A stretch of 47,140 bases of DNA from Candidatus Saccharimonadota bacterium (GCA_016880595.1 JAEHDC010000018.1:1-47140); one strand, 5' to 3'; positions 4,622-47,140 are shown, counted from the first letter of the stretch. Made by a program: numbers and translations. The notes: generated by a model from the letters alone, not told the origin.

Positions 4622-5218
4622 TTACTCGTTTACACCTAACTCAAAACGAGCCATGCGACGTAAAACAATATTTTCACCTAATTTTGAAATATAATTCTTT
4701 ATTAAATCTCCAACCGTTACATCTGGGTTTTTAATAAATGGCTGTTCCATTAAACATTGTTCGGCAAAGTGCTTTTTGAGTATACCTTCAACAATTTGTG
4801 GCAACATTTTTTCAGGCTTACCCTCATTTTTGATCTTTTCAGTAAACTCAGCTTCCTTAGATTCACGTTCCTGAGCTGGAACATCCTCAAGCGTTACGAA
4901 ACGCGGCGCAGTTGCCGCTATGTGCATTGCCAAATCATGGACCAGAGTTTTAAAATTATCAGTGCGAGCCACAAAATCTGTCTCACAGTTAACCTCAATC
5001 AAAACGCCAATTCGATCACCATGCACATAACTATGCACAATTCCTTGGCTAGCTTCGCGTTCACTACGTTTTTCTGCTTTAGTCAAGCCTTTTTTGCGCA
5101 TTTCTTCCAGGGCTTTGTCAAAATTGCCATCTGCTTCTTCCAAAGCATGCTTAGCATCGGTCAAACCTACTCCCGTTAATTCTTTTAACCTTTTAACTTC
5201 TTCAAGAGATATTGTCAT
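4622..5218 (-). CDS. tsf: Elongation factor Ts (short form)
   Basis: The N-terminal UBA-like segment VKRLKELTGVGLTDAKHALEEADGNFDKALEEMRKKG is present, and the gene lies directly downstream of rpsB. Confidence 0.9.
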   Translation of the reverse strand: MTISLEEVKRLKELTGVGLTDAKHALEEADGNFDKALEEMRKKGLTKAEKRSEREASQGIVHSYVHGDRIGVLIEVNCETDFVARTDNFKTLVHDLAMHIAATAPRFVTLEDVPAQERESKEAEFTEKIKNEGKPEKMLPQIVEGILKKHFAEQCLMEQPFIKNPDVTVGDLIKNYISKLGENIVLRRMARFELGVNE

Positions 5219-5226
5219 TTCTTCCC

Positions 5227-5934
5227 CTATTTTTCTTCTACTTTGCGCGCTGCTTTGCCTTCCAAAATAGCAGCTTTGACATAATCTGTAATAATTTTTA
5301 ACGCCTTCAGGGCGTCGTCGTTGGCCGGAATTGGATAGTTGGCCAAATCTGGATTAGCATTAGTATCAGCAATTGCTACTACCGGTATACTTAAACGGCG
5401 AGCCTCCGCCACGGCATTCTTATCATAGATCATATCTACCACAAAAACTGCGCCCGGCTGGCCATTAAGATCTTTAATGCCTCCGTATTTTAAGTTAAGC
5501 GCATCGATTTCTTCCTGGTAACGCTGCACTTCGAGTTTATTGTAACGACCAGCCAATTCACCAGAGGCCATACGAGTTTCAAGCTTTTTAAGGTGCTTAA
5601 TTCGTTCAGTCGTAGTCTTTACATTTGTAAGCATGCCTCCGAGCCAACGTTCGGTAACATACGGCATGCCAACTTCTTCGGCCGCAGCTTTTACAATGTC
5701 CTTGGCCTGACGTTTTGTGCCAACAAAAAGCACTTGCTTGCCACTAGCGATAGTTTTAGTAATGAATGGCAACGCCACATTCAAGCTTTCGACAGTTTTG
5801 GTAAGGTCAATAATATGACTTTCGTTACGTTTGCTGTGAATGTACTTTGCCATCTTAGGATGCCAACGACTAGTTTTGTGGCCAAAATGCGCGCCCGATG
5901 CAAGCAAATCTTTAATGTCTACTTCCACTGCCAT
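5227..5934 (-). CDS. rpsB: 30S ribosomal protein S2
   Basis: Contains LLASGAHFGHKTSRWHPKM...ERWLGGMLTN...PVVAIADTN. Confidence 0.95.
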   Translation of the reverse strand: MAVEVDIKDLLASGAHFGHKTSRWHPKMAKYIHSKRNESHIIDLTKTVESLNVALPFITKTIASGKQVLFVGTKRQAKDIVKAAAEEVGMPYVTERWLGGMLTNVKTTTERIKHLKKLETRMASGELAGRYNKLEVQRYQEEIDALNLKYGGIKDLNGQPGAVFVVDMIYDKNAVAEARRLSIPVVAIADTNANPDLANYPIPANDDALKALKIITDYVKAAILEGKAARKVEEK

Positions 5935-6025
5935 AAGAGTAAAATCCTTTTCTTCCCCTGCGCCCTTCCCTAATCAGGAGGACTTTTTACGCGTAGGGTG
6001 ATTCGTTAAATTTGTAATTGCTTAA

Positions 6026-6034
6026 ATTATACCA
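6026..6034 (-). promoter_or_regulatory. Extended -10 (TGgTATAAT) for the rpsB-tsf operon, giving a leader of about 85 nt
   Basis: The minus strand reads gcaTGgTATAATttaagc. Confidence 0.5.
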
Positions 6035-6075
6035 TGCTAAGGTGTTGTTGCCTAGTACTTTTACAAAAATATCCT

Positions 6076-6103
6076 TTGCATCGACGCCACAGTATGCTAC
6101 CAT
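6076..6103 (+). promoter_or_regulatory. Promoter TTGCAT-16-TACCAT, 7 nt upstream of ATG 6111
   Basis: Read directly from the sequence. No SD precedes ATG 6111. Confidence 0.4.
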
Positions 6104-6110
6104 TACCGTA

Positions 6111-7139
6111 ATGAAGCAATTGCTAAAAATCTATTGGTTCGCACTTGCAGCGACAATCATAATATGGGTTTCTACCGGCATCTTTGCCGGATGGCAGGCA
6201 CTTTTAACAGTAGTTGTACTTACCTTGCTTGAGGTGACATTTAGCGCCGACAACGCGGTTATCAATAGTAAAATCATCACCAGCCTTTCGCCGCTATGGC
6301 AAAAACTTTTTATGACCCTAGGCATTATTATTGCTGTTTTTGCTGTACGTTTTGCTATGCCAATTGCCATTGTGGCGATTTCTGCAAAACTTAGCTTAAG
6401 TGAAGTTGTCAACCTAGCGCTCAATAGCCCATCAGATTATGAGCATTATTTGTCTCTTGCTGAGCCAGCAATTAACGCTTTTGGTGGCGCCTTTTTACTC
6501 ATGATAGCGCTTAGCTACTTTATAGATCATGAGAAACAAACGCATTGGCTTAAATTTCTCGAGCATCGGCTTGGAAAACTTGGCAAGTTTAACGATGTTA
6601 CAATTTTTATAATGCTACTCGCATCTATAATTTTGTACTTTACCGTTTCAGCAGATCACCAAGGCACCATACTTATTGCTTCAATTTGCGCAATGGCATT
6701 AAAGATTGGTCTCAATTTACTAGAAGAGGCTTTTAGCAAAAACAATCCAAGCAATAAAGTTGCCGTCCGACAAGTGTATGGAATGGCAGCATTTGCATCA
6801 TTTTTGTATCTCGAGCTTCTCGATGCTTCATTCTCGCTCGACGGAGTAATCGGCGCCTTTGCTCTTACTAACAACATTATCCTAATCATGGCTGGTCTTG
6901 GCGCTGGCGCTGTTTGGGTCCGAGCTATGACAATCCATCTTGTTAAAAACAAAACGCTTGCAAAATATCAATACCTCGAGCATGGCGCGCATTGGGCAAT
7001 TGGCTTTTTGGGCGGAGTTATGATGCTAAAATTATATGGGGTGGAGCTGCCAGAATGGCTAGTTGGTTCACTTGGCATTGTTTTTATTGGATTAGCCATC
7101 GCAACGAGCATAATGTCCCAACGCGACATTAAGTCATAA
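6111..7139 (+). CDS. Polytopic integral membrane protein, TerC/DUF475-like
   Basis: There are about nine hydrophobic segments. LLEVTFSADNAVINS and LLDASFSLDGVIGAFA resemble the paired TerC/DUF475 motifs. Start moved to ATG 6111 because the track's TTG extension overlaps the rpsB promoter. Confidence 0.6.
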   Translation: MKQLLKIYWFALAATIIIWVSTGIFAGWQALLTVVVLTLLEVTFSADNAVINSKIITSLSPLWQKLFMTLGIIIAVFAVRFAMPIAIVAISAKLSLSEVVNLALNSPSDYEHYLSLAEPAINAFGGAFLLMIALSYFIDHEKQTHWLKFLEHRLGKLGKFNDVTIFIMLLASIILYFTVSADHQGTILIASICAMALKIGLNLLEEAFSKNNPSNKVAVRQVYGMAAFASFLYLELLDASFSLDGVIGAFALTNNIILIMAGLGAGAVWVRAMTIHLVKNKTLAKYQYLEHGAHWAIGFLGGVMMLKLYGVELPEWLVGSLGIVFIGLAIATSIMSQRDIKS

Positions 7140-7164
7140 CTTTGCATTTTTATCTTAAAAAATC

Positions 7165-7193
7165 TTTACATTGCCATAAAAAACAGATATAAT
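7165..7193 (+). promoter_or_regulatory. Near-consensus promoter TTTACA-17-TATAAT, 10 nt upstream of the rpmE ATG
   Basis: The -35 lies at 7165-7170 and the -10 at 7188-7193, with ATG at 7204. No SD is present. Confidence 0.6.
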
Positions 7194-7203
7194 ATTTGTA
7201 ATT

Positions 7204-7533
7204 ATGAAAAGCAACCTTCACCCAACCGACTATCGTCCTGTTGTCATGCAGGATCCAAGCGCAGGCTTTGCCTTCTTAACAAAGTCTACAGCTAAAACCG
7301 ACAAGACCATTAAATGGGAAGACGGTAACGAATATCCTCTCATAGAGGTTTACATTAGTAGCGCCTCTCATCCTTATTTTACAGGCAAGGAAACTCTCAT
7401 CGACACCGAGGGTCGCGTTGACCGTTTTGAAGCTCGTAAAAAAGCTGCCGAAATGCGCCGAAATGCTTTGGCAAGTAAAGCCAAAAAAACCGTTGCTAGA
7501 GCCGAAGCAAAAAATAGCAAAAATAAGAAGTAA
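7204..7533 (+). CDS. rpmE: 50S ribosomal protein L31, type B (no CxxC zinc motif)
   Basis: [14 protein letters not shown]...[13 protein letters not shown] matches L31. The protein contains no cysteines at all. Confidence 0.9.
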
Positions 7534-7568
7534 CTGTCGGCGTCTACGCCAATTTTGGAGGCGGAATA

Positions 7569-8648
7569 ATGGCACGCATACAGCTAGATATCTTACAACT
7601 TAAAACCGAACAAGCCGAATTGTCGGCTTTTTTGGCGCGCCCAGACGCCTTTAGTGACAGTGAGTATGCCAAAAAAACCAAGCGGCTAAGCGAACTAACC
7701 GAAATTATCAGCCTTGTAGAGCGCCAGCAAACCATCAGCAAACAGCTTACAGAAGCAGTAGAAATGGCGCGTGGTGATGATGAACTGGCTGAGCTTGCCA
7801 AAGAAGAAATTCCTTCTTTGGAGAATGAATATTCCAATATTGACAGCAAGCTTTTTGAAATGCTCTCGCCAAAAGACCCAAATGACGAAAAAAATGTCAT
7901 TGTGGAAATTCGTGCTGGTGCGGGCGGCGATGAAGCTAGCCTGTTTGCGGCGGATCTATTCCGTGCATATCAACGCTTTGCTGAACGTCGCGGCTTCAAG
8001 ACCGACCTAATCAGCGAAAGCCCGTCTGAAGTCGGCGGCTTTAAAGAGATAATTTTTAGCATAAAAGGTTCCGAAGTTTATAGTACGTTAAAATTCGAAA
8101 GCGGCGTTCATCGCGTTCAGCGCGTGCCAACAACCGAAAGCCAAGGCCGCATCCACACTTCAACTATCACTGTTGCAGTTTTGCCGGAGGCCGAAGAAAC
8201 AGATGTAGTCATTAACCCTAGCGACCTACGAATTGACGTATTTCGTAGCAGCGGAAACGGCGGTCAGAGTGTCAATACAACAGATTCTGCTGTTCGCATC
8301 ACTCACCTACCAACTGGCTTGGTTGTTAGCTGCCAAGATGAAAAATCTCAAATTAAAAACAAAGACAAGGCTCTAAAAGTTTTGCGCAGCCGCCTACTTG
8401 CTATAAAATTAGAAGAAGAGCAGGCAAAATTGACTGCTGAACGCCGCGGCCTGATTGGCTCAGGCGACCGCAGCGAGAAAATCCGCACATATAACTGGCC
8501 ACAAGATCGTATTACTGACCACCGAATTGGCTACAGTCGTAGTAACATTCCGGGTGCTATGAATGGCGAAATTGACGATTTAATTGAACATTTGCAAGCT
8601 CGCGAGCGTGAAATGCGTGCCGCAGGAATAGAAGAAAAGCAAGGGTGA
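7569..8648 (+). CDS. prfA: Peptide chain release factor 1
   Basis: [14 protein letters not shown] (PxT tripeptide region) and the GGQ motif [24 protein letters not shown] are present. GGAGG SD upstream. Confidence 0.95.
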
Positions 8649-8651
8649 AAA

Positions 8652-9458
8652 ATGACAATCCAGCAATATCTGCATCAAACAACAAACGACTTTGAAGCTG
8701 CAGGTATTATCAGTGCTAGGCTTGATGCTCAAGTTCTAATTTGCAGCTTACTCAAACAAAATAAAGCATGGCTTTTGGCGCATGGCGAACGGAAGATTTC
8801 CCCAGAAATATTACCTCAGCTCTTAGATATTACAGCACGCCGCGCCAGACGCGAGCCAATTGCTTACATTCTTGGTCGAAAAGAATTTTACGGCCGCGAT
8901 TTTTTAGTCTCCCCAGAAGTGCTAATTCCTAGACCTGCAACAGAGCAGCTCATTGACGAAATTAAAGCATTACCTCTTGCCGATCAACCAAAAATATTGG
9001 ATGTTGGCACCGGTAGCGGCATAATTGCTGTCACCTTAAATCTTGAAATGCCACAATCCCGCGTAGAGGCCAGCGATATTGACTCGAGCGCGCTACAAAT
9101 TGCCGAAAAAAATGCAGAGAAACTTGGTGCGCAACAAATACGCTTTTTTGAATCGGACCTCTTGCAGCACGCCAGTCATGATTATGATTGCATCGCTGCC
9201 AACCTGCCATACGTTGATGAGAGTTGGCAGTGCTCACCCGAAACTGCTTTTGAGCCAAAAAAGGCGATTTTCGCAAAAGACAATGGATTAATTTTTATCA
9301 AAACACTATTTCTACAGACACCAAAACACCTTAAAAGTGGGGGGTTTTTGGTATTGGAAGCCGACCCGCGTCAATTTGATAACATCAAAAAAATTGCCGA
9401 GCCAGGCTTTGAATTTATAAAAATACAGGATTTTTGCGCTGTGTTTAGCAAACGCTAG
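8652..9458 (+). CDS. prmC: Release-factor glutamine N5-methyltransferase PrmC/HemK
   Basis: SAM-binding ILDVGTGSGIIA is present, and the gene lies directly after prfA. Motif IV reads NLPY instead of NPPY. Confidence 0.85.
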   Translation: MTIQQYLHQTTNDFEAAGIISARLDAQVLICSLLKQNKAWLLAHGERKISPEILPQLLDITARRARREPIAYILGRKEFYGRDFLVSPEVLIPRPATEQLIDEIKALPLADQPKILDVGTGSGIIAVTLNLEMPQSRVEASDIDSSALQIAEKNAEKLGAQQIRFFESDLLQHASHDYDCIAANLPYVDESWQCSPETAFEPKKAIFAKDNGLIFIKTLFLQTPKHLKSGGFLVLEADPRQFDNIKKIAEPGFEFIKIQDFCAVFSKR

Positions 9459-10015
9459 TTTTTTATTAAACCTTCAATTGAGCCGGCATTTCTTAAAATT
9501 TCAGCTGCACTTACGAGCGAAAAATGCGTGGGCATTCTTTGCATAGCCTGATCGTAATTTAGTAGCTGAATACTAATTTTCTCGCCCGAACCGTGAGTCG
9601 GTGCACTCACACTTTGCACATCCCAGGCAACAAAAATATAAACAAACCATTCAATCTCATCTGATGGCTGAGCTGCCGCAGCAAGCCTCCAGTGATCAAA
9701 GACCATGCCAGTTTCTTCCATCATCTCTCTTTTTGCACAGTCCAGCTCTGTTTCTTGTGGCCGATCATGGCGCCCCCCAGGCAACGTCAAGCCACTACGT
9801 TTTTGACCAGGTTGTTCATCTTGTAGGAAAATCAGCTTTCCATCTTTTATTGCTAAAACCTTAACAGTATCAACACGCTTGAGCATTTCAAATACAGATG
9901 TAGTGCCGTCGTACATTTTTTGCGGCCAGTGATAAATATCATAAATTTTACCCCTAAATACCGGCTTTGCGGTATTAGGAATTAAATGCGCGTTTTCTGG
10001 AATAACAGTGCGCAT
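9455..10015 (-). CDS. NUDIX hydrolase
   Basis: The Nudix box GGRHDRPQETELDCAKREMMEETGM is present. Confidence 0.8.
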   Translation of the reverse strand: MRTVIPENAHLIPNTAKPVFRGKIYDIYHWPQKMYDGTTSVFEMLKRVDTVKVLAIKDGKLIFLQDEQPGQKRSGLTLPGGRHDRPQETELDCAKREMMEETGMVFDHWRLAAAAQPSDEIEWFVYIFVAWDVQSVSAPTHGSGEKISIQLLNYDQAMQRMPTHFSLVSAAEILRNAGSIEGLIKN

Positions 10016-35797: not shown

Positions 35798-36641
35798 TGG
35801 GCCCGTTGCCTGCTCAACCCTACAAGGCATTCTGCCCTATTTTGATATTGAAGCAATAGTTACCAAGCCGCGCGCTGATGGTTTTCGAGGCAGCGTGCCG
35901 GTTCTTGAATTTGCTCAAAAAAACAACGTACCGTTTTACACTCCGCGCACAAAAAATGAGCTTACAGATCTATTTGCAAGCAAAAAATTTTCTAGCCAAG
36001 TTGGGCTAGTCGTTGATTATGGTATCATAATAAGCCTTGCTGTTATAAATAGCTTTCCAAAAGGCATTGTCAATAGTCACTTCTCTCTGCTGCCAGAGTG
36101 GCGTGGTGCTGATCCAATTACTTTTAGTGTTTTAAGCGGCCAGGAAGAAACTGGGGTGAGCTTGATGCTTATCAATGAGAAGCTCGATGAGGGCGAATTA
36201 ATTCTACAATCACCGCATAAATTAACACGCGACATAACAACACCTGAGCTCACCAATCAATTAACGACCCTGAGCAACAGGCTACTAGTAGAAAACTTGC
36301 CCAAATATATTTGTGGCGAATTAAAAATTTATCCTCAGCCCAATACGCCCATAAGCTATTCGCGTAAACTAAATAAAGATGATGGCGCGCTTGATATAAA
36401 TAAGTCAGCAATACAGCTCGAGCGTGAAGTTCGCGCTTTTGCCGGTTGGCCAAAAAGCAAAATTAATTTATTTGGACACAATGTTATCGTAAAAAAGGCG
36501 CGCGTAGCTGAAAGCAAAACTGACGGAGCACTTGTAATTTCTTGTGCCAACAATTCTTACCTTGAAATCATACAGCTCACAGCCCCATCTGGACGCACAA
36601 TGTCTGGAGCAGATTTCTTGCGCGGATACAAAAAAGGTTAA
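35763..36641 (+). CDS. fmt: Methionyl-tRNA formyltransferase
   Basis: IVFFGSGPVA and NSHFSLLPEWRGADPI are present. ATG 35763 is preferred over the track's TTG at 35757. The gene overlaps def by 35 nt. Confidence 0.9.
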   Translation: MTRLPKIVFFGSGPVACSTLQGILPYFDIEAIVTKPRADGFRGSVPVLEFAQKNNVPFYTPRTKNELTDLFASKKFSSQVGLVVDYGIIISLAVINSFPKGIVNSHFSLLPEWRGADPITFSVLSGQEETGVSLMLINEKLDEGELILQSPHKLTRDITTPELTNQLTTLSNRLLVENLPKYICGELKIYPQPNTPISYSRKLNKDDGALDINKSAIQLEREVRAFAGWPKSKINLFGHNVIVKKARVAESKTDGALVISCANNSYLEIIQLTAPSGRTMSGADFLRGYKKG

Positions 36642-36949
36642 TCTTCCAAAGCTAAAATCTGGTCTTTATTGGCCATAATCTCTTCGCGCAACCTAGCAGT
36701 CTCATCATCAACTACCAATTTATAATTTGGACAGTTTTTCTCGAGCCATTGAAGCGCACCATCCTCATCTTGCGAATCAATAAGTTTTTCAAAATCTATT
36801 AGCAACGACTCACTTAAACCTTGAGCTAGCTTAGACCCAACTCTTGTCTCCAAAGTTTCTCTTAAATAATCCAAAAAATCGTCCTTCTGTTCCTTGGACA
36901 TCTTATCTAAACCCACTTCAATCAAAAACGATTCATTTAATACAACCAT
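36638..36949 (-). CDS. Small helical hypothetical protein, paralog A (103 aa)
   Basis: TGcTATAAT lies 9 nt upstream of ATG 36949. The protein aligns by eye with the divergent neighbour. It may belong to a small DUF family common in Patescibacteria, but this is unverified. Confidence 0.6.
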   Translation of the reverse strand: MVVLNESFLIEVGLDKMSKEQKDDFLDYLRETLETRVGSKLAQGLSESLLIDFEKLIDSQDEDGALQWLEKNCPNYKLVVDDETARLREEIMANKDQILALED

Positions 36950-36958
36950 AATAAAAAC

Positions 36959-36967
36959 ATTATAGCA
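36959..36967 (-). promoter_or_regulatory. Extended -10 (TGcTATAAT) 9 nt upstream of ATG 36949
   Basis: The minus strand reads aaaaaTGcTATAATgtttttattATG. Confidence 0.5.
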
Positions 36968-36984
36968 TTTTTCAAAAAATGCTA
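36963..36984. promoter_or_regulatory. 22-bp palindrome TAGCATTTTT-ca-AAAAATGCTA in the divergent intergenic region
   Basis: The 10-nt arms are perfect. The left arm overlaps the extended -10 of paralog A. Confidence 0.4.
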
Positions 36985-37002
36985 ATACGCACAATTACTT
37001 TA

Positions 37003-37011
37003 TGGTACAAT
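37003..37011 (+). promoter_or_regulatory. Extended -10 (TGgTACAAT) for paralog B and the giant-gene operon
   Basis: It lies 27 nt upstream of ATG 37039, which has an AAGGA SD. Confidence 0.45.
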
Positions 37012-37038
37012 TATAAGCAAAAGCAGTTAAGGACAATT

Positions 37039-37344
37039 ATGCTACAAGACAGCCAAGCCGCAAATCAATTTATCGATAAGATTATTGAAGAAAAGAATCT
37101 ACAAGATCTAGATGCAGAGGTTCATAAACAACTGCATAATGACCTTATGCGCCGCCTTGAGGACCGTATCAATCATGCAATCATCAACTCCTTGAACAAT
37201 AAACAGGCTACTCAACTTGAGCATTTAATTGATACTCAACAAATAGATAAAATACAAAGCTTTTTGAAAAAAGAAGGTATAAATGTTAATGGAATTATTG
37301 CTGGCACAATGAGTAAATTTTACTCTGACTATCTTGGAGCATAA
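37039..37344 (+). CDS. Small helical hypothetical protein, paralog B (101 aa)
   Basis: AAGGA SD lies 7 nt upstream of ATG 37039, and TGgTACAAT lies at 37003-37011. The stop is 1 nt before the start of the giant gene. Confidence 0.6.
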   Translation: MLQDSQAANQFIDKIIEEKNLQDLDAEVHKQLHNDLMRRLEDRINHAIINSLNNKQATQLEHLIDTQQIDKIQSFLKKEGINVNGIIAGTMSKFYSDYLGA

Positions 37345-37345
37345 A

Positions 37346-40300
37346 ATGTCAACAATAACAGCTCCTCGACCCTCTTCAATTGACACCAACTTGCCCGGCT
37401 CAGAATACGTCCATGAAGGACGTCTTAAAATTGTTATAGCTGGCCTCGATAAGAATGTCCGCAATGAAGCAGCCAGAACAGCAAATGATGTACTTAAAGA
37501 TAAAACCAGCGGTGGCGGCAACTTTTTATCCTTTCTACGAAATATTAAAGACCGGCAGTTTACTGAGGCAGGTAGAGATATCCGTTCTTTTGGGCGTCGC
37601 TTGCGATATGGCACTCTTGGCCAAGAATATTATCAAAACAAGTATCGGCAGGAAAAAGAAAAAGAAATAGTTGAGCGTGGCGATTTTAAAGATCGTTATG
37701 GCGAAGATTATGAATCGCAAATTACAATGCGCTTTGCTCATGAATTCGACGACCTTGTTCATACAGAAGCTGGTGAGCGGCGTACTAAATTAGACTTCGA
37801 AACAAACCCAGATGGTACTACCAACGAAAAAGGCGTTAAGCTTAAAGAAAACTTATTTGGTCTTATAAAAGAAGCTACGCTTGGAGGCTTTGATGACGAG
37901 AGTGGCAATCTTAATGAAGAGTCTTTTAATGAAGAAAAGAAGCGTGTAATTACCGAATCTGCAAACGACGGCCTAACCGAAGACTATATTGGCGCAAGCA
38001 TGCTCTGGGCCGACAATATATTACAGATAGTTAATCATAGCCGGGCTGCAATTCTATCTCAAAACATTACTGATGAAGCCGAGAAAACGGCTGCGATAGA
38101 AAATATGTTTGAGAATACTGATATAATCCTTGGTGAAGCTAGACTCGGCGCCAGAGGCGAAGTTAAAAAAACAGCTGCCGAGCGTATTAGTGAAAAACTT
38201 AGTAAATGCGACTGGCTAAATGAAGAAACCGTTGCAACGTCCGCTGCAGTCGCCCTTACAGCCGCCTCTTTCGCTGTAAAACGCGGCGCTAGCAGATTAG
38301 CTGCCTCGATTGCCGTACCCGGCGTTACTGGCGGCGTATGGGCGGCCAAACGCGAATATGTAAAGCTCGATGAAGAACGGACTGATATCGCACGCAAAAT
38401 GGCCACCGGCGAAGTTGACATGCAGAGCCTATCTGGACGTACTGCCGAACTTGCAAAAACAGTCTACGAGACTAGATCCGCAAGCGAGCTTAAGGACCAA
38501 ATTAGCGTTCTTTACAACGATGATGGCGAACTTCGCATTGACGATGCCGATCATTTTAAAGAAGCAATATCAATAATAGCCGAGATACAGGCTCGCAATC
38601 GTCTATCCGATCAAAAAGACATCAACCTTATAAGCTATTCTTCTGTCGAGATGGTTGAAAAGGAGCGTTTTGAGCTTGATCTAGCCTTAGCAAAATCAAA
38701 AACCGACATTCAAAAGCTGCTATCCAGCTCATCTGATACCGAACTTAAAGCTTTTGGCCTCGGGGATGAAACTATTGCTGAGCTAAAAAAACCAGACGCA
38801 AACATTCTAAACGTTATTATGGAGCCGCAAATTGAAGGCGCTCAAGGTGTAATGGAAGCTGCAATTGAACGCCTGCAGATTGGCGAAGAAGCTAATGACG
38901 AAGAAAGCATTAATGCACGCGATCGCCTATTTAATAAAATGCGTCGTTCAGAAGTGATGAAGGCTTTTCTTAAGGGCACGGCCATCGGATCTTTTCTCGG
39001 TTTATTTGCCCAAGAAGTCGTCACTTCCGTAGAAGCGGCCGCCGGCGAAAGCACCTCTAGCCTGCTTATAGAAAATCAAGGTGCTACCAAAGAGTCCTGG
39101 CTTAGAAGCGTTCTAGACCATGGCAATGGCGCGCTAGACCATGGAAATTATGAGTATGTTGCAAATGCCAATCCAGAAAATACAATTCTTGTTAACGATG
39201 AGACCAAAATTGTGCTGCCAGATGGCTTTACAATTGAGCCAAGCGCTGACGGAACAGAGGCCATCTTAAGCGGCAACGGCGTAAATATTGAGCACCTTAA
39301 GCTTACTAGTCAAGGCACGCTTACAGATGAGTCGCTTAATCAATTACACGAAGCTGGCTTTAGCACAGAAGTTAGCGCCAACCAAATATCAGAAGACGTC
39401 GACCGTCAGGTTGCTGGCGAATCTGCAAGGGATTTTATAGACAATCATAGCGACGAAGCCGTTACAGTAAAACGTGATTTCTGGTACGACAATGACACTA
39501 CAAGCATCTACGAAGGTAGTGAGTTAGACCTACAGGATCCCGTCATACAATCTGATGGGAGCATAAATATAAGCATAAGCGGTATAAAGGAAAGCGGTAC
39601 GCATGCCGGAAATTATGCCGAATTAAAAGAATTAGCAAAAAACGGCGAACTTAAAATTGCCCTGTCGCTCTCCAAAGGAACTCAATCTGAGGTTTTCCTG
39701 TTTAACGTTGATGAAAATGGCAACGCAATCATACCAAGCGATAGCCCCTGCACCGATCTATTCAACAAAGGTGAAAATGGCCAGTTGAGCTTTGACGGTC
39801 AATATACAGAGGTTGTACAAGTTCACGGCATTGATGAAAACGGTATTACTCATATCAGCCCATTCGCAACTAACATTGGCTCGAATTTAAATAGCTTTGA
39901 TGATACCGTCACAGATAAGGTGACCTACAATTCTACAACATACACGCTTAACCTTACTGAAAATGTTCCTGGGACTGAAGTTGAAGCTAAGACAATAATA
40001 CCATCAGCACTTCCATTAAATACACGTCGCGGACTAGAATATACCGATGCCAACAAAGCAACACCTATAGAGAGCTACTACTTCAGCAACATCGCAGAGG
40101 ATCGTCGTAGAATATGGGCCGAAAATCGCTCACCACGATTACAGGAAAAACCGAATACCCTACTAAATACAGGCGAGGAGCTAAAATGGTATCGCGATGA
40201 ACTCAAACAATTTGACGAAGAATATATCAAAGAGATTGACGGACATCTAAAAGGTAATGAGGATGTCCTGAGGAGGCTGGACTCAAATATTACAGCAGAA

Positions 40301-41398
40301 GTCTGCATTTCAGTTGCCGCAGCAGAAGATTCAGAAAGCATCTACGACACCCTCGTTCAATATGCCCAACAAGATACTGAATCACAAAAATCTACAATGT
40401 TCTTCCTAAACATTCATTGGATGGAACGGCTCGAAAGCGACCCAGAGCAAATGTCTAAAATTCAAAAAACTTTTACGGAAATAGAGCAAGCAATGAGTGA
40501 TTTTCCAAATTTAAACATAGTAGGGTTTGAAACAGTCTGGCCGGATGAACTGATACAATCACTCCACGATGTAAACGATCTCTACGATGAGTCTACTAAA
40601 CGATTATATGACACCGCTGCGCTTGCTACAGAACAAGCGATTCGTAAAGGTCATCGTACCAATAGAGCTGGAGCAATTATTATTAATAGCGACGTCGGTG
40701 CTACGAATTTGGGTCACAATCTTATAAGAAACTTTGTAAAAGAAGCTAACCGACATCCTAGAATAGATGTTTTCTCTACGATTGACAGGGATGAACAAAG
40801 CGGATTGCCGACGGCTTCAGGCTTTAGGTTATCGGCTTACGCAGCAACTGGCGGGTCTTTATACCTATCAGACATGAGCATTAACATCAATGGCGCTATT
40901 GACCAACTTATTGCGGCAGCCCGTCAAGGAGATTCACTTCATCAATCAGCCGATCAAAATGATAATCGACAAACAAACAACGACACCCAGGAAGAACCTC
41001 ATAATAACGAGCAAGCTCAAGTTGAAAATAATGCGCCTGCAAACAATCAACCCAGTACTAGCGGCGCTCCGCAACAGTTGGCACTGTCAAGTGGTACAAC
41101 AAACAATCCATATCAACTCGCAATTACTCAAGCATTGGCCAATATCAATCCTAATGATGAGCTAGATGAAATTACAGCCCAAAAGCCAAACGGAGAAGGT
41201 GGTACTATCTACGCCGATTTCGCATACAACAATCGAAAGATTAATGGCTATTTTTACTTTACTGGATATGATAATGATATGGACCACCTTATTTTTGAAC
41301 CACATAATAATCCCGGCCAAACAGAATTTATCATAGGCCGAGAAAAAGCGTTGTCATTAATAGGAAGCGGTCGGATTATCAAGCATTTACAGAGATAG
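37346..41398 (+). CDS. Giant (1350 aa) multi-domain hypothetical membrane protein
   Basis: The ORF is an uninterrupted 4053 nt, with GGAG 6 nt upstream of ATG 37346. It has three hydrophobic segments and a Q/N-rich linker. No family was recognised. Confidence 0.8.
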   Translation: MSTITAPRPSSIDTNLPGSEYVHEGRLKIVIAGLDKNVRNEAARTANDVLKDKTSGGGNFLSFLRNIKDRQFTEAGRDIRSFGRRLRYGTLGQEYYQNKYRQEKEKEIVERGDFKDRYGEDYESQITMRFAHEFDDLVHTEAGERRTKLDFETNPDGTTNEKGVKLKENLFGLIKEATLGGFDDESGNLNEESFNEEKKRVITESANDGLTEDYIGASMLWADNILQIVNHSRAAILSQNITDEAEKTAAIENMFENTDIILGEARLGARGEVKKTAAERISEKLSKCDWLNEETVATSAAVALTAASFAVKRGASRLAASIAVPGVTGGVWAAKREYVKLDEERTDIARKMATGEVDMQSLSGRTAELAKTVYETRSASELKDQISVLYNDDGELRIDDADHFKEAISIIAEIQARNRLSDQKDINLISYSSVEMVEKERFELDLALAKSKTDIQKLLSSSSDTELKAFGLGDETIAELKKPDANILNVIMEPQIEGAQGVMEAAIERLQIGEEANDEESINARDRLFNKMRRSEVMKAFLKGTAIGSFLGLFAQEVVTSVEAAAGESTSSLLIENQGATKESWLRSVLDHGNGALDHGNYEYVANANPENTILVNDETKIVLPDGFTIEPSADGTEAILSGNGVNIEHLKLTSQGTLTDESLNQLHEAGFSTEVSANQISEDVDRQVAGESARDFIDNHSDEAVTVKRDFWYDNDTTSIYEGSELDLQDPVIQSDGSINISISGIKESGTHAGNYAELKELAKNGELKIALSLSKGTQSEVFLFNVDENGNAIIPSDSPCTDLFNKGENGQLSFDGQYTEVVQVHGIDENGITHISPFATNIGSNLNSFDDTVTDKVTYNSTTYTLNLTENVPGTEVEAKTIIPSALPLNTRRGLEYTDANKATPIESYYFSNIAEDRRRIWAENRSPRLQEKPNTLLNTGEELKWYRDELKQFDEEYIKEIDGHLKGNEDVLRRLDSNITAEVCISVAAAEDSESIYDTLVQYAQQDTESQKSTMFFLNIHWMERLESDPEQMSKIQKTFTEIEQAMSDFPNLNIVGFETVWPDELIQSLHDVNDLYDESTKRLYDTAALATEQAIRKGHRTNRAGAIIINSDVGATNLGHNLIRNFVKEANRHPRIDVFSTIDRDEQSGLPTASGFRLSAYAATGGSLYLSDMSININGAIDQLIAAARQGDSLHQSADQNDNRQTNNDTQEEPHNNEQAQVENNAPANNQPSTSGAPQQLALSSGTTNNPYQLAITQALANINPNDELDEITAQKPNGEGGTIYADFAYNNRKINGYFYFTGYDNDMDHLIFEPHNNPGQTEFIIGREKALSLIGSGRIIKHLQR

Positions 41399-41403
41399 GC
41401 ATC

Positions 41404-43173
41404 TTATAGATTTCGCTTCTTAAGCTCTCTCCTAAACAACTCCAGTTGGTCACCTTCTTGCAGTAGAAGCTTGCCTCTTGTCTTTAATTGCAAGCCACAC
41501 ATGTCGCCCTCAAAAGCTTCTTTAACCTCTTGCTGCTGACGTTGGACTTTGCCAACCTCAGCTTCTGCAATTTGTTCATTTTTCCTCTTTACGCGAACCA
41601 GTAAATTCGGTTCAATTTTTCCAGAAGTGACTTCTCCACCACATATAACTTCATCTTTTGAAGTGCGGAATATGCCCTTTATAGTAAGCTTGCCGAGTTC
41701 CGTCTCAACAACTTCAGGAGCTAATAAATCTTCGAGTGTCTTCTTGGCGTCATCAATTAACTCATATATGATCTTAAACAATCGAACAGGAACTTTATCT
41801 CTTTGGGCTAAATGCTTAACAGCCGGAGGAAGCTGTACATTAAAACCATAAATTATAGCATCCGAACTTTGCGCCATACGAACGTCATTCTCTGATATAC
41901 TACCAATACCACTACTTATTATTCTTGGCGCAACCTCATCGCTCTCAAGCAGCTTCAGGCTATCTGCGACAGATGTGAGTGATCCCTGTACGTCAGCTCG
42001 CAAAATAACATTAACGAGTTGCTTCTCTTTTCGTCTCTTCATAAGCTGCAATAAGTCTGTGCTAGAAATTGCCGACGTCTGAATACTTTCCTTTACTTCA
42101 GTGTGATGCTTTACTGCCAAATTGCGTGCGTCCTTTTCTGTAAGCACAGACACAAAACGATCTCCGAATTGCGGAATATCTTTGAACCCAGTTACGGTTG
42201 CCGGCGTTGACGGACCAGCCTCCTTAAGTGATTTGCCAGCGAAGTCCTGCAAAGTTCTAACTTTAGCATAAGTATCGCCAGCAACCAAAAACGTTCCAGG
42301 CTTGAGCTTGCCGTTTTCAACTAACATACTTACAACCGCACCACGCCCCTGTTCCATGTGTGATTCAATAACCAAACCCTCTGCCGCACCAGTTGTCTCA
42401 GCTCTTAGCTCCTCAAAGTCAGCTACAAGCAAAATCATTTCCAGTAACTTATCAAGGTTTTGTTTTGTTTTTGCCGAAACCTCAACCATGACCGTATCTC
42501 CGCCCCACTCTTCTGGAGTGAGATTATGATCGGTAGCGAGCTGGGTTTTTACACGATTTACATCGGCTTCTGGTTTATCAATTTTATTAATTGCAACAAT
42601 AATCTTTGCATTGGCTTGTTGAGCAAACTTAATAGCTTCAATGGTTTGTGGCTTCACACCATCATCAGCTGCAACAACAATCACCACTACGTCCGTTAAA
42701 GCTGCGCCATGTTGTCTAAGCGCACTAAATGCCTCATGACCTGGAGTATCAAGCAATGTGATCTTGCGGCCGTTATATTCAGTTTGATAGGCGGCGATAT
42801 GCTGCGTTATGCCACCGGCCTCGCCACTTGCAACTTTCATATTTAAAATCGCATCTAGCAAGCTAGTCTTTCCGTGGTCTACATGCCCCATAACTGCCAC
42901 GATAGGCGGGCGGCTGCTGGCGTCCTTGCTCAAGGCACGTGTCTTACGATCTAAACTACTCTTTTCTTCAGCCTCTTTTTGCTTTAGGACAACCTCAAGA
43001 CCAAGCTCATCAACGATAATCTGCGCAGTCTCAAGATCAATACGTTGATTAATTGTGGCCATAATTCCATTTTTAAACAATTCACCTATAAGCTTCGTAA
43101 CTGGCAAATCCAATTGAGCCGCCAGCTCTCCAACGGTAATCATGCCTGGGACCACAAGTATTTTTTGGGCCAT
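41404..43173 (-). CDS. infB: Translation initiation factor IF-2 (short N-terminus)
   Basis: G-domain motifs GHVDHGKTSLLD, DTPGH and NKID are present. AAGGAGA SD upstream. Confidence 0.95.
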   Translation of the reverse strand: MAQKILVVPGMITVGELAAQLDLPVTKLIGELFKNGIMATINQRIDLETAQIIVDELGLEVVLKQKEAEEKSSLDRKTRALSKDASSRPPIVAVMGHVDHGKTSLLDAILNMKVASGEAGGITQHIAAYQTEYNGRKITLLDTPGHEAFSALRQHGAALTDVVVIVVAADDGVKPQTIEAIKFAQQANAKIIVAINKIDKPEADVNRVKTQLATDHNLTPEEWGGDTVMVEVSAKTKQNLDKLLEMILLVADFEELRAETTGAAEGLVIESHMEQGRGAVVSMLVENGKLKPGTFLVAGDTYAKVRTLQDFAGKSLKEAGPSTPATVTGFKDIPQFGDRFVSVLTEKDARNLAVKHHTEVKESIQTSAISSTDLLQLMKRRKEKQLVNVILRADVQGSLTSVADSLKLLESDEVAPRIISSGIGSISENDVRMAQSSDAIIYGFNVQLPPAVKHLAQRDKVPVRLFKIIYELIDDAKKTLEDLLAPEVVETELGKLTIKGIFRTSKDEVICGGEVTSGKIEPNLLVRVKRKNEQIAEAEVGKVQRQQQEVKEAFEGDMCGLQLKTRGKLLLQEGDQLELFRRELKKRNL

Positions 43174-46490: not shown

Positions 46491-46500
46491 CTATATAAAA

Positions 46501-46610
46501 CGGCACCGTGCTATTTTCCCACCTAAAAGGCAGTATAATCGCCGCGACTGGGCTTAACTTCTGTGTTCGGAATGGTAACAGGTGTCTCCCCAGTGCCATG
46601 GGCACCGAAA
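46501..46610 (-). rRNA. rrf: 5S ribosomal RNA
   Basis: The minus strand reads UUUCGGUGCCCAUGGCACUGGGGAGACACCUGUUACCAUUCCGAACACAGAAGUUAAGCCCAGUCGCGGCGAU...GGGAAAAUAGCACGGUGCCG. The CCGAACACAGAAGUUAAGC loop C/helix III signature is present. Helix I closes as CGGUGCC/GGUGCCG with two G-U pairs. Ends are approximate. Confidence 0.85.
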
Positions 46611-46645
46611 ACTATATTCAAAATTAAACACAGTTTTCGGTGCCC
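46600..46645 (-). other. 14-bp perfect hairpin in the 23S-5S spacer that includes the 5' strand of 5S helix I
   Basis: GGGCACCGAAAACU (46632-46645 on the minus strand) pairs with AGUUUUCGGUGCCC (46600-46613), with an 18-nt loop. Confidence 0.6.
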
Positions 46646-46764
46646 AAAAGGTACCTTATTGTATGATGTTAAAGGAATATCAGCGTGATGACTCACACTA
46701 ACTACTAGTCAATCCTACCTCATTAGCCAAGATTATGCAAGCATAATCAAAAACTAAAAAGGAC

Positions 46765-47140
<376 letters not shown>

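Follow-up and report, generated by a model that had tools for sequence, protein, structure and literature searches.

A large Saccharibacteria protein family paired with DUF5663 genes, and a member with a degenerate glycosyltransferase-like domain

A 47,140-nucleotide (nt) stretch of DNA from a Candidatus Saccharimonadota bacterium (GCA_016880595.1, JAEHDC010000018.1:1-47140), referred to at its full length as the window, contains between positions 37346 and 41398 an open reading frame (ORF) of 1350 amino acids (aa). An original prediction, made from the sequence, had described this gene as an uninterrupted 4053-nt ORF encoding an orphan multi-domain membrane protein and had proposed a role in host attachment or envelope scaffolding. 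The frame is open from the ATG at 37346 to the stop codon at 41398 and, as had been read, GGAG lies 6 nt before that ATG. An in-frame TTG is also present at 37334, but the ATG is favored because relatives begin with "MS...". The TAA of the preceding small gene ends at 37344, which leaves the predicted 1-nt gap to the ATG, and the two genes form a tight operon, as had been read. The gene occupies 8.6% of the window, in line with the earlier figure of about 9%. It is the largest gene present, although not "by far" as had been claimed: it is only 1.4 times the length of the next ORF, the next-largest being 957 aa (isoleucyl-tRNA synthetase) and 948 aa (class II ribonucleotide reductase). The features of the gene and its product are the following; the evidence for each is given in brackets.

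37346..41398, plus strand: large gene, encoding 1350 aa and belonging to an unnamed family spread through Saccharibacteria (ORF list and homologue searches)
37336..37339, plus strand: ribosome-binding site GGAG, 6 nt 5' of the ATG (direct sequence reading)
37346..38230, plus strand: N-terminal region, aa 1-295, mainly helical with a small sheet, 34% charged (AlphaFold2, invariant columns)
38231..38347, plus strand: hydrophobic hairpin, with segment 1 at aa 296-312, a 6-aa loop and segment 2 at aa 319-334 (hydropathy, conservation, charge)
38348..38965, plus strand: helical region, aa 335-540, which ends rich in lysine and arginine (K/R) (AlphaFold2 helices, invariant columns, charge statistics)
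38966..39031, plus strand: third hydrophobic helix, segment 3, aa 541-562 (hydropathy 1.33, conservation, charge)
39170..39955, plus strand: beta-rich domain, aa ~609-870 (AlphaFold2)
40091..40933, plus strand: glycosyltransferase (GT) domain of GT-A (GT2-like) fold, aa ~916-1196, degenerate in this copy (AlphaFold2, Foldseek, Pfam matches of relatives)
40691..40699, plus strand: D1116-V1117-G1118 in place of the D-A-D of the family, a DxD remnant (motif audit)
40934..41395, plus strand: lineage-specific tail, aa 1197-1350, a Q/N-rich linker and an end of ~95 aa (BLASTP, AlphaFold2)

Searches with the whole 1350-aa protein returned no match in Pfam, NCBIfam, PADLOC or the PDB sequence set. However, the protein is not an orphan. 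A word-indexed search recovered 15 homologues of 916-1665 aa with 27-47% identity, all of them annotated as "hypothetical", and a second word-indexed search with the GT alignment added only 4 new proteins. An exhaustive HMMER search, in which the profile covered the first 938 positions of the protein, matched 1236 representative clusters (E<=1e-3), of which 802 reach E<=1e-30. The majority align end to end, and their lengths fall between 1300 and 1900 aa. A scan of GTDB species genomes yielded 14 loci from two peptide patterns alone, 12 of which are named Candidatus Saccharibacteria or Saccharimonadales. The orphan status is refuted by these homologues, clusters and genomes, while the Saccharibacteria affiliation of nearly all relatives fits the earlier view of a reduced, host-dependent genome. 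The remaining two GTDB loci lie on contigs of metagenome-assembled genomes, L009 (DATLJN010000099.1, labelled "Magnetospirillaceae") and L011 (JASFQB010000005.1, labelled "Candidatus Woesebacteria"). Their homologues are 44% and 34% identical to the window protein, respectively, and are nearer to it than many Saccharibacteria matches; the two labels may reflect mis-binning.

Every name returned by the cluster look-ups was "hypothetical protein". In the library searched, DUF5663 and SEML1_0161 are mentioned by no paper, and a wider search on the Saccharibacteria envelope and its tomography brought up nothing about the family. The family is large and phylum-wide in Saccharibacteria and is without a name or a Pfam model. 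The analysis establishes the 1350-aa ORF as a functional gene of this large uncharacterised family.

The start of the large gene is flanked by two small genes of the DUF5663 family, one of which is the operon partner.

37039..37344, plus strand: upstream partner, DUF5663 (PF18908), ~101 aa from the ATG at 37039 (Pfam E=1.1e-07)
36638..36994, minus strand: second, divergent DUF5663 paralogue (Pfam E=2.2e-16)

The mechanical ORF of the partner gene starts at 36979, and the ATG at 37039 ("MLQDSQ...") was inferred from homologues. Homologues likewise suggest ATG 36901 ("MSKEQ...") as the likely true start of the divergent paralogue. The mechanical ORFs, 36638-36994 on the minus strand and 36979-37344 on the plus strand, overlap, whereas the internal starts leave a shared upstream region of ~135 nt.

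The presence and synteny of the gene were profiled across related loci, as the original prediction had advised, and the result is a conserved two-gene module in housekeeping neighborhoods. Each of the 21 related loci that have upstream DNA has, as the window does, a small ORF of 100-115 aa in the same orientation, which either stops 0-8 nt short of the large gene or runs into its start. By phmmer, the products are homologues of the DUF5663 protein of the window (E values from 8.5e-39 to 2.9e-07). In the window and in loci L001, L003 (where the cassette is inverted) and L008, the pair lies within the order S1-IF2-[pair]-Fmt-Def-PriA. In one Saccharibacteria lineage, that of P0009, L017 and L020, it lies between rpsJ (S10) and rplC (L3), inside the S10 ribosomal-protein operon. 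The insertions into an otherwise canonical S10 operon are as follows.

L004, 476-4836: pair inserted in the S10 operon
L005: pair inserted in the S10 operon
L017, 3297-7657: pair inserted in the S10 operon
L020, 3522-7885: pair inserted in the S10 operon

A second DUF5663 gene is found beside fmt in the window, L001, L008 and Southlakia epibionticum. No mobile-element or immunity-like genes are present among the called genes of the related loci, although no dedicated search was made.

The locus has a published counterpart in S. epibionticum ML1, where the order is S1 (SEML1_0159), IF2 (SEML1_0160), SEML1_0161, SEML1_0162, SEML1_0163, Fmt, Def and PriA (PMC10633639). SEML1_0161 is a 767-aa hypothetical protein without annotation (PMC10633639, Tables S1, S2), and SEML1_0162 and SEML1_0163 are two DUF5663 genes (PMC10633639). 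By transposon sequencing, SEML1_0161 and SEML1_0162 were growth-defective and then essential (GD/ES/ES) (PMC10633639, Tables S1, S2). By its position only, SEML1_0161 is a candidate for a shortened family member. If it is a member, the published transposon data would already indicate that this gene is required for growth on the host. S. epibionticum has no large gene between S10 and L3. A protein of 766 aa, P0100, was considered as a possible S. epibionticum orthologue and was rejected, being a partial entry from a metagenome-assembled genome.

There are hints that the DUF5663 protein is a chaperone or adaptor for the large protein. Structural matches to the C-terminal part of trigger factor and to LTXXQ/Spy-like proteins have been reported for a DUF5663 protein (Wang et al. 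2023, PMC10633639, Table S2), and a weak match to the NCBIfam model "tig" in the scan of the window also bears on this idea.

The domain order that had been read from the translation agrees with the AlphaFold2 models, in which aa 1-570 are helical, aa ~609-870 beta-rich and aa ~916-1196 alpha/beta, followed by a low-confidence Q/N-rich linker and tail. The model of aa 1-600 is largely helical and of moderate confidence, with a mean predicted local distance difference test (pLDDT) score of 64. Conserved motifs in aa 1-295 include IHxxAGERR and LGEARxGARTE, and the region between the hairpin and segment 3 contains a near-invariant helix, VExERFELDLALAKAK. A Foldseek search of the N-terminal model against the PDB returned no neighbor (best E=0.8), and a profile of the N-terminal and beta-rich regions returned nothing below E=0.04 from the PDB.

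All three hydrophobic stretches named in the original prediction were found where it had placed them. In the hairpin, which is rich in Ala, Gly and Val, Asp and Glu are essentially absent across ~160 aligned relatives, the set on which the segment statistics are based. The hairpin is bracketed by K/R-rich flanks, with 3.5 and 5.5 such residues per flank. Within segment 3, G544-x3-G548-x3-G552 is 68-83% conserved and the pair Q556-E557 84-86%. The GxxxGxxxG pattern is the "glycine zipper", a helix-packing motif. Segment 3 is flanked by 6.5 K/R upstream as compared to 1.2 downstream, and its downstream flank is acidic. The equivalent three segments are positionally conserved in the family and reach hydropathies of 1.6-2.3 in many relatives. 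The description of the gene product as a membrane protein is nevertheless weaker than had been stated, since the segments of the window copy itself are weak, as discussed below.

Downstream of segment 3 the AlphaFold2 model shows a flexible linker of ~45 residues and then the beta-rich domain, which is modeled with pLDDT mostly above 70 and 85-95 in many blocks. This domain is acidic, with a net charge of -39, is rich in Asn, Ser and Thr and contains the family motif RDFWYDN. It has no PDB sequence match, and both fold searches of the C-terminal model (aa 560-1350) were dominated by the neighboring GT-A domain.

AlphaFold and Foldseek, the tools named in the original prediction, led to the recognition of the GT-A fold at aa ~916-1196. 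Most of the domain is modeled with pLDDT 85-96, and the score drops in places toward the C-terminal end. The best PDB matches of the C-terminal model are GT-A enzymes (E~1e-3, probability 0.95-1.0), and its neighbors include the CHSY3/CHPF chondroitin synthase, LH3, COLGALT1, PcManGT (6yv7), hyaluronan synthase (7sp8) and GtrB (9nyc). A library of viral structures (BFVD) likewise gave GT-A matches. Two of 30 relatives reach Pfam GT2 models (Glyco_trans_2_3, E=1.3e-05; Glycos_transf_2, E=8e-04), and the relatives share a GT2-like motif order, IPVA..E..IY.TL..Y..Q followed by DAD, G.N and [DE]D..G..R. The window protein itself matched no GT profile in Pfam or NCBIfam. Matches to ClyA/HlyE obtained with a profile of the GT region against the PDB (E~0.14) were insignificant and were rejected as chance.

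The GT motifs were audited in 128 aligned domains, comprising 127 relatives and the window copy. The DxD motif is intact, as DAD or D[SVI]D, in 124 of the 128, and the D-V-G of the window is among the 4 exceptions. At the 16 positions that are at least 90% conserved, the window copy deviates at 12, two of which are deleted. The family residues P (94%), N (98%), R (91%) and G (93%) are replaced by S989, H1024, Q1048 and D1081; the second Asp of DxD (98%) is replaced by G1118, and two further glycines (96% and 94%) by T1145 and D1186. The G.N segment, 97-98% conserved, falls within a deletion of ~45-60 aa. The second acidic motif, [DE]D (83% conserved), reads N-G in the window, making this the sole domain of the 128 without an acidic residue there. 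D1116, D1141 and R1193 are retained. The earlier statement that the protein has no catalytic signature is therefore true of the window copy, but the alpha/beta domain itself is a GT-A fold in which the family motifs are degenerate. Identity to the closest relative, P0002, is 44% in the GT-like domain and 50% over the first 965 aa. Judged from sequence and model, the domain looks like a retained pseudo-enzyme domain and not like free decay, because the identity to P0002 has been kept and the AlphaFold2 model is confident.

The "aromatic-rich terminal module" that had been proposed for the C-terminus did not find support. The last ~155 residues have no significant BLASTP similarity to P0002 or P0014, and the tail is predicted to be disordered (pLDDT <50). 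A homology of this "aromatic module" to repeats of P0002 and P0014, seen in a MAFFT alignment, was rejected for want of significant BLASTP similarity.

The C-terminal half varies across the family. Of the 155 proteins with a complete N-terminal and beta-rich module, 127 carry the GT domain (82%) and 28 are without it. Some members end in other enzymes: P0164 has a C-terminal Ser/Thr kinase (aa 1560-1815, E=8e-26), P0135 a C-terminal kinase with an HRDxKxxN loop (aa ~1493) and P0113 a PP2C phosphatase (aa 1478-1674), while DUF362 was found in one of 30 members scanned. P0135 has no hydrophobic segment between segment 3 and its kinase, which places the beta-rich, GT and kinase parts together on one side of the membrane.

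In roughly one member in five the conserved module is preceded by an N-terminal extension longer than 100 aa, which amounts to 350-550 aa in P0041, P0042, P0051 and P0062; the extensions of the three that were scanned (P0041, P0051 and P0062) gave no Pfam match. In L008 the homologue (4854-9551 on a 117-kb contig) is one frame broken by an in-frame TAA at 7971-7973, precisely where the beta-rich region gives way to the GT-like one, and the downstream part, P0017, has 13 member sequences. This stop may mark a genuinely split gene, or else be a nonsense allele or a point of read-through. The idea that the locus encodes a separate cytoplasmic GT protein was also considered and was dropped, as both ORFs share one frame with the single TAA.

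The remainder of the window holds ordinary housekeeping genes, including those for FtsA, FtsZ, RecJ, PriA, Def, Fmt, IF2 and S1, and it also encodes an LCP protein, HtrA and a signal peptidase. The convergent infB follows the large gene directly, and the two stop codons are 5 nt apart (41396-41406). No terminator-like hairpin was found near this convergence, and a promoter and terminator scan gave counts at or below chance. The IF2 of the window (41404-43173, minus strand) is short, at 589 aa, as are its homologues in related loci (573-601 aa). Ribosomal RNA is encoded on the minus strand at 46498-47140, namely the 3' end of a 23S rRNA and a 5S rRNA, and no tRNA genes were found in the 47-kb window.

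The preferred interpretation is that the protein is a membrane-anchored, cytoplasm-facing envelope scaffold and not an adhesin. Taken as a whole, this interpretation is given somewhat less than an even chance of being correct: its descriptive parts are secure, whereas the topology and the "scaffold" role are not. The hairpin and the glycine-zipper-type helix would tether the protein to the cytoplasmic membrane and would probably also drive self-association. Because it has basic flanks on both sides, the hairpin may be an in-out-in anchor; segment 3 would then not cross the membrane fully but would associate with it or mediate oligomerisation. On the cytoplasmic side would lie the N-terminal helices and all that comes after segment 3, including the beta-rich and GT2-like domains and the kinase or PP2C of other lineages. 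Both termini are most simply placed in the cytoplasm, since no signal-peptide-like stretch is evident by eye at the polar N-terminus (MSTITAPRPSSIDTNLPGSEY...) and the enzymes of the family need nucleotide sugars or ATP.

A scaffold of this kind, membrane-tethered and probably oligomeric, could hold a glycosyltransferase in place on the cytoplasmic side of the membrane, joined in some lineages by phospho-signalling enzymes, and might serve the making or control of an envelope glycoconjugate. The DUF5663 protein may act as its chaperone or adaptor. In the genome of the window the GT-like domain would be left with a structural or binding role only. Judged by its motifs this GT part is catalytically dead, and the conserved function would therefore reside in the first ~900 residues together with DUF5663.

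Several observations weigh against this interpretation. In the window protein the maxima of Kyte-Doolittle hydropathy over 19 residues are 1.11, 1.02 and 1.33 for segments 1, 2 and 3, all below the usual threshold of 1.6. The charge pattern of segment 3 (6.5 versus 1.2 K/R) fits a transmembrane helix with its N-terminus inside and its C-terminus outside (N-in/C-out), in which case the beta-rich and GT-like domains would be extracellular. The hydrophobic segments are three in number, and both ends can be cytoplasmic only if one of these segments fails to cross the bilayer. "Scaffold" is also a default reading, because the N-terminal and beta-rich domains match nothing.

The charge pattern of segment 3 is the principal point in favor of surface display, in which segment 3 is a signal-anchor and the protein from the beta-rich domain onward lies outside, with a role in attaching to the host or in scaffolding the envelope from without. 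The flanks obey the positive-inside rule for an N-in/C-out helix across the ~160 relatives, the beta-rich domain is strongly acidic, the linker past segment 3 is flexible, and organisms of this group live on host bacteria, to which they attach (PMC10633639). However, the GT-A domain and, in relatives, the kinase or PP2C follow the beta-rich part with no further hydrophobic segment, as is seen from segment 3 to the kinase of P0135, and such enzymes need cytoplasmic substrates. The termini bear no signal-peptide- or wall-anchor-like sequence as read by eye (the protein ends ...IIKHLQR), and no adhesin, lectin or immunoglobulin-like match was found by Pfam, PDB profile or fold searches. Surface display is considered unlikely, and these observations speak against the host-attachment role that had been proposed. 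Envelope scaffolding, the other half of that proposal, is plausible if placed at the cytoplasmic face of the membrane.

External enzymes that depend on ATP and sugar nucleotides would be reconciled with an external C-terminus if the protein were a contact-dependent effector. In such a scheme the first half would insert in a membrane and deliver the variable C-terminal enzymes to the host, with DUF5663 as the chaperone. The family has a conserved N-terminal part of ~900 aa with variable ends (GT2-like in 127 of 155, kinase, PP2C, DUF362 or none) and a small helical partner gene directly upstream, and an N-in/C-out segment 3 would expose the enzymes to the host. Glycine-zipper helices are also known from pore-forming toxins. 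The genomic setting argues otherwise: the gene is syntenic in housekeeping loci, even within the S10 operon, infB converges 5 nt downstream, and there is no sign of immunity or mobile-element genes among the called genes, for which no dedicated search was made. Nor are secretion-system genes adjacent or toxin families matched, and the GT domain evolves slowly and is kept in 82% of members. An effector role is therefore held to be quite improbable. A similarly slim chance is given to a more ambitious proposal, namely that DUF5663 and the large protein together form an undescribed, Saccharibacteria-wide membrane machine that is essential for epibiotic growth. Its glycine-zipper helices would make it oligomeric at the contact site, and the part past segment 3 would be extracellular and carry the glycosyltransferase, kinase or phosphatase modules to the host bacterium or into it.

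The suggestion that the gene is functionless and nearing loss can be set aside as very improbable: the lost catalytic motifs, the internal deletion, the unique and predicted disordered last 155 aa and the in-frame TAA of the L008 relative would agree with decay, but the 4053-nt frame is intact with its ribosome-binding site and tight junction to the partner gene, the identity to P0002 is maintained in both parts of the protein, both C-terminal domains are modeled with confidence, and the 28 members without a GT domain make loss of GT activity compatible with keeping the remainder.

Saccharibacteria are ultra-small, live attached to other bacteria and have much of their proteome without assigned function. 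What appeared to be a one-off gene becomes a defined family with a fixed DUF5663 partner, a mapped layout and one recognisable enzyme fold. By comparing the catalytically intact GT copies with dead ones such as that of the window, a contrast that the family offers naturally, the conserved role can be assigned either to glycosyl transfer or to the first 900 residues. Genomes of this kind hold many conserved hypothetical proteins; nevertheless, the two-gene module, its placement in ribosomal and translation operons, the contrast of active and inactive GT copies and the possible link to an essential gene make this family a good experimental target.

As compared to known systems, the protein is a membrane-associated multidomain protein with a GT-A domain, and most of its length, made up of the helical N-terminal region, the hydrophobic core and the beta-rich domain, has no counterpart among described proteins. 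Like the membrane-anchored Ser/Thr kinases of PknB/StkP type that regulate the envelope of Gram-positive bacteria, some members of the family join a Hanks-type kinase or PP2C to membrane segments. However, the kinase of the family lies at the far C-terminus after the GT domain, PASTA domains are lacking, and the window protein has neither kinase nor phosphatase. With the large glucosylating toxins and polymorphic effectors, which couple a GT-A cargo to a hydrophobic translocation region, the family has in common that one polypeptide unites a GT-A domain with hydrophobic helices rich in Gly and Ala and with an enzyme end that varies. The domain order is reversed, with the cargo C-terminal; there is no sequence or fold match to the toxins, and the gene stands in a housekeeping context with no immunity-like neighbor among the called genes.

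The GT2-type GT-A enzymes (PF00535, PF13632) are matched by aa ~916-1196 in fold and by the relatives in motif order. The window copy differs from them in having D-V-G for DxD, a deleted G.N segment, a lost second acidic motif and no profile match, and in this family the GT domain stands at the end of a ~900-aa module that no described glycosyltransferase has. Both small genes that flank the start of the large gene match DUF5663 (PF18908), a family of small helical proteins. No prior description of its pairing with the large protein was found in the library searched, and the pairing is strict, holding at 21 of 21 loci.

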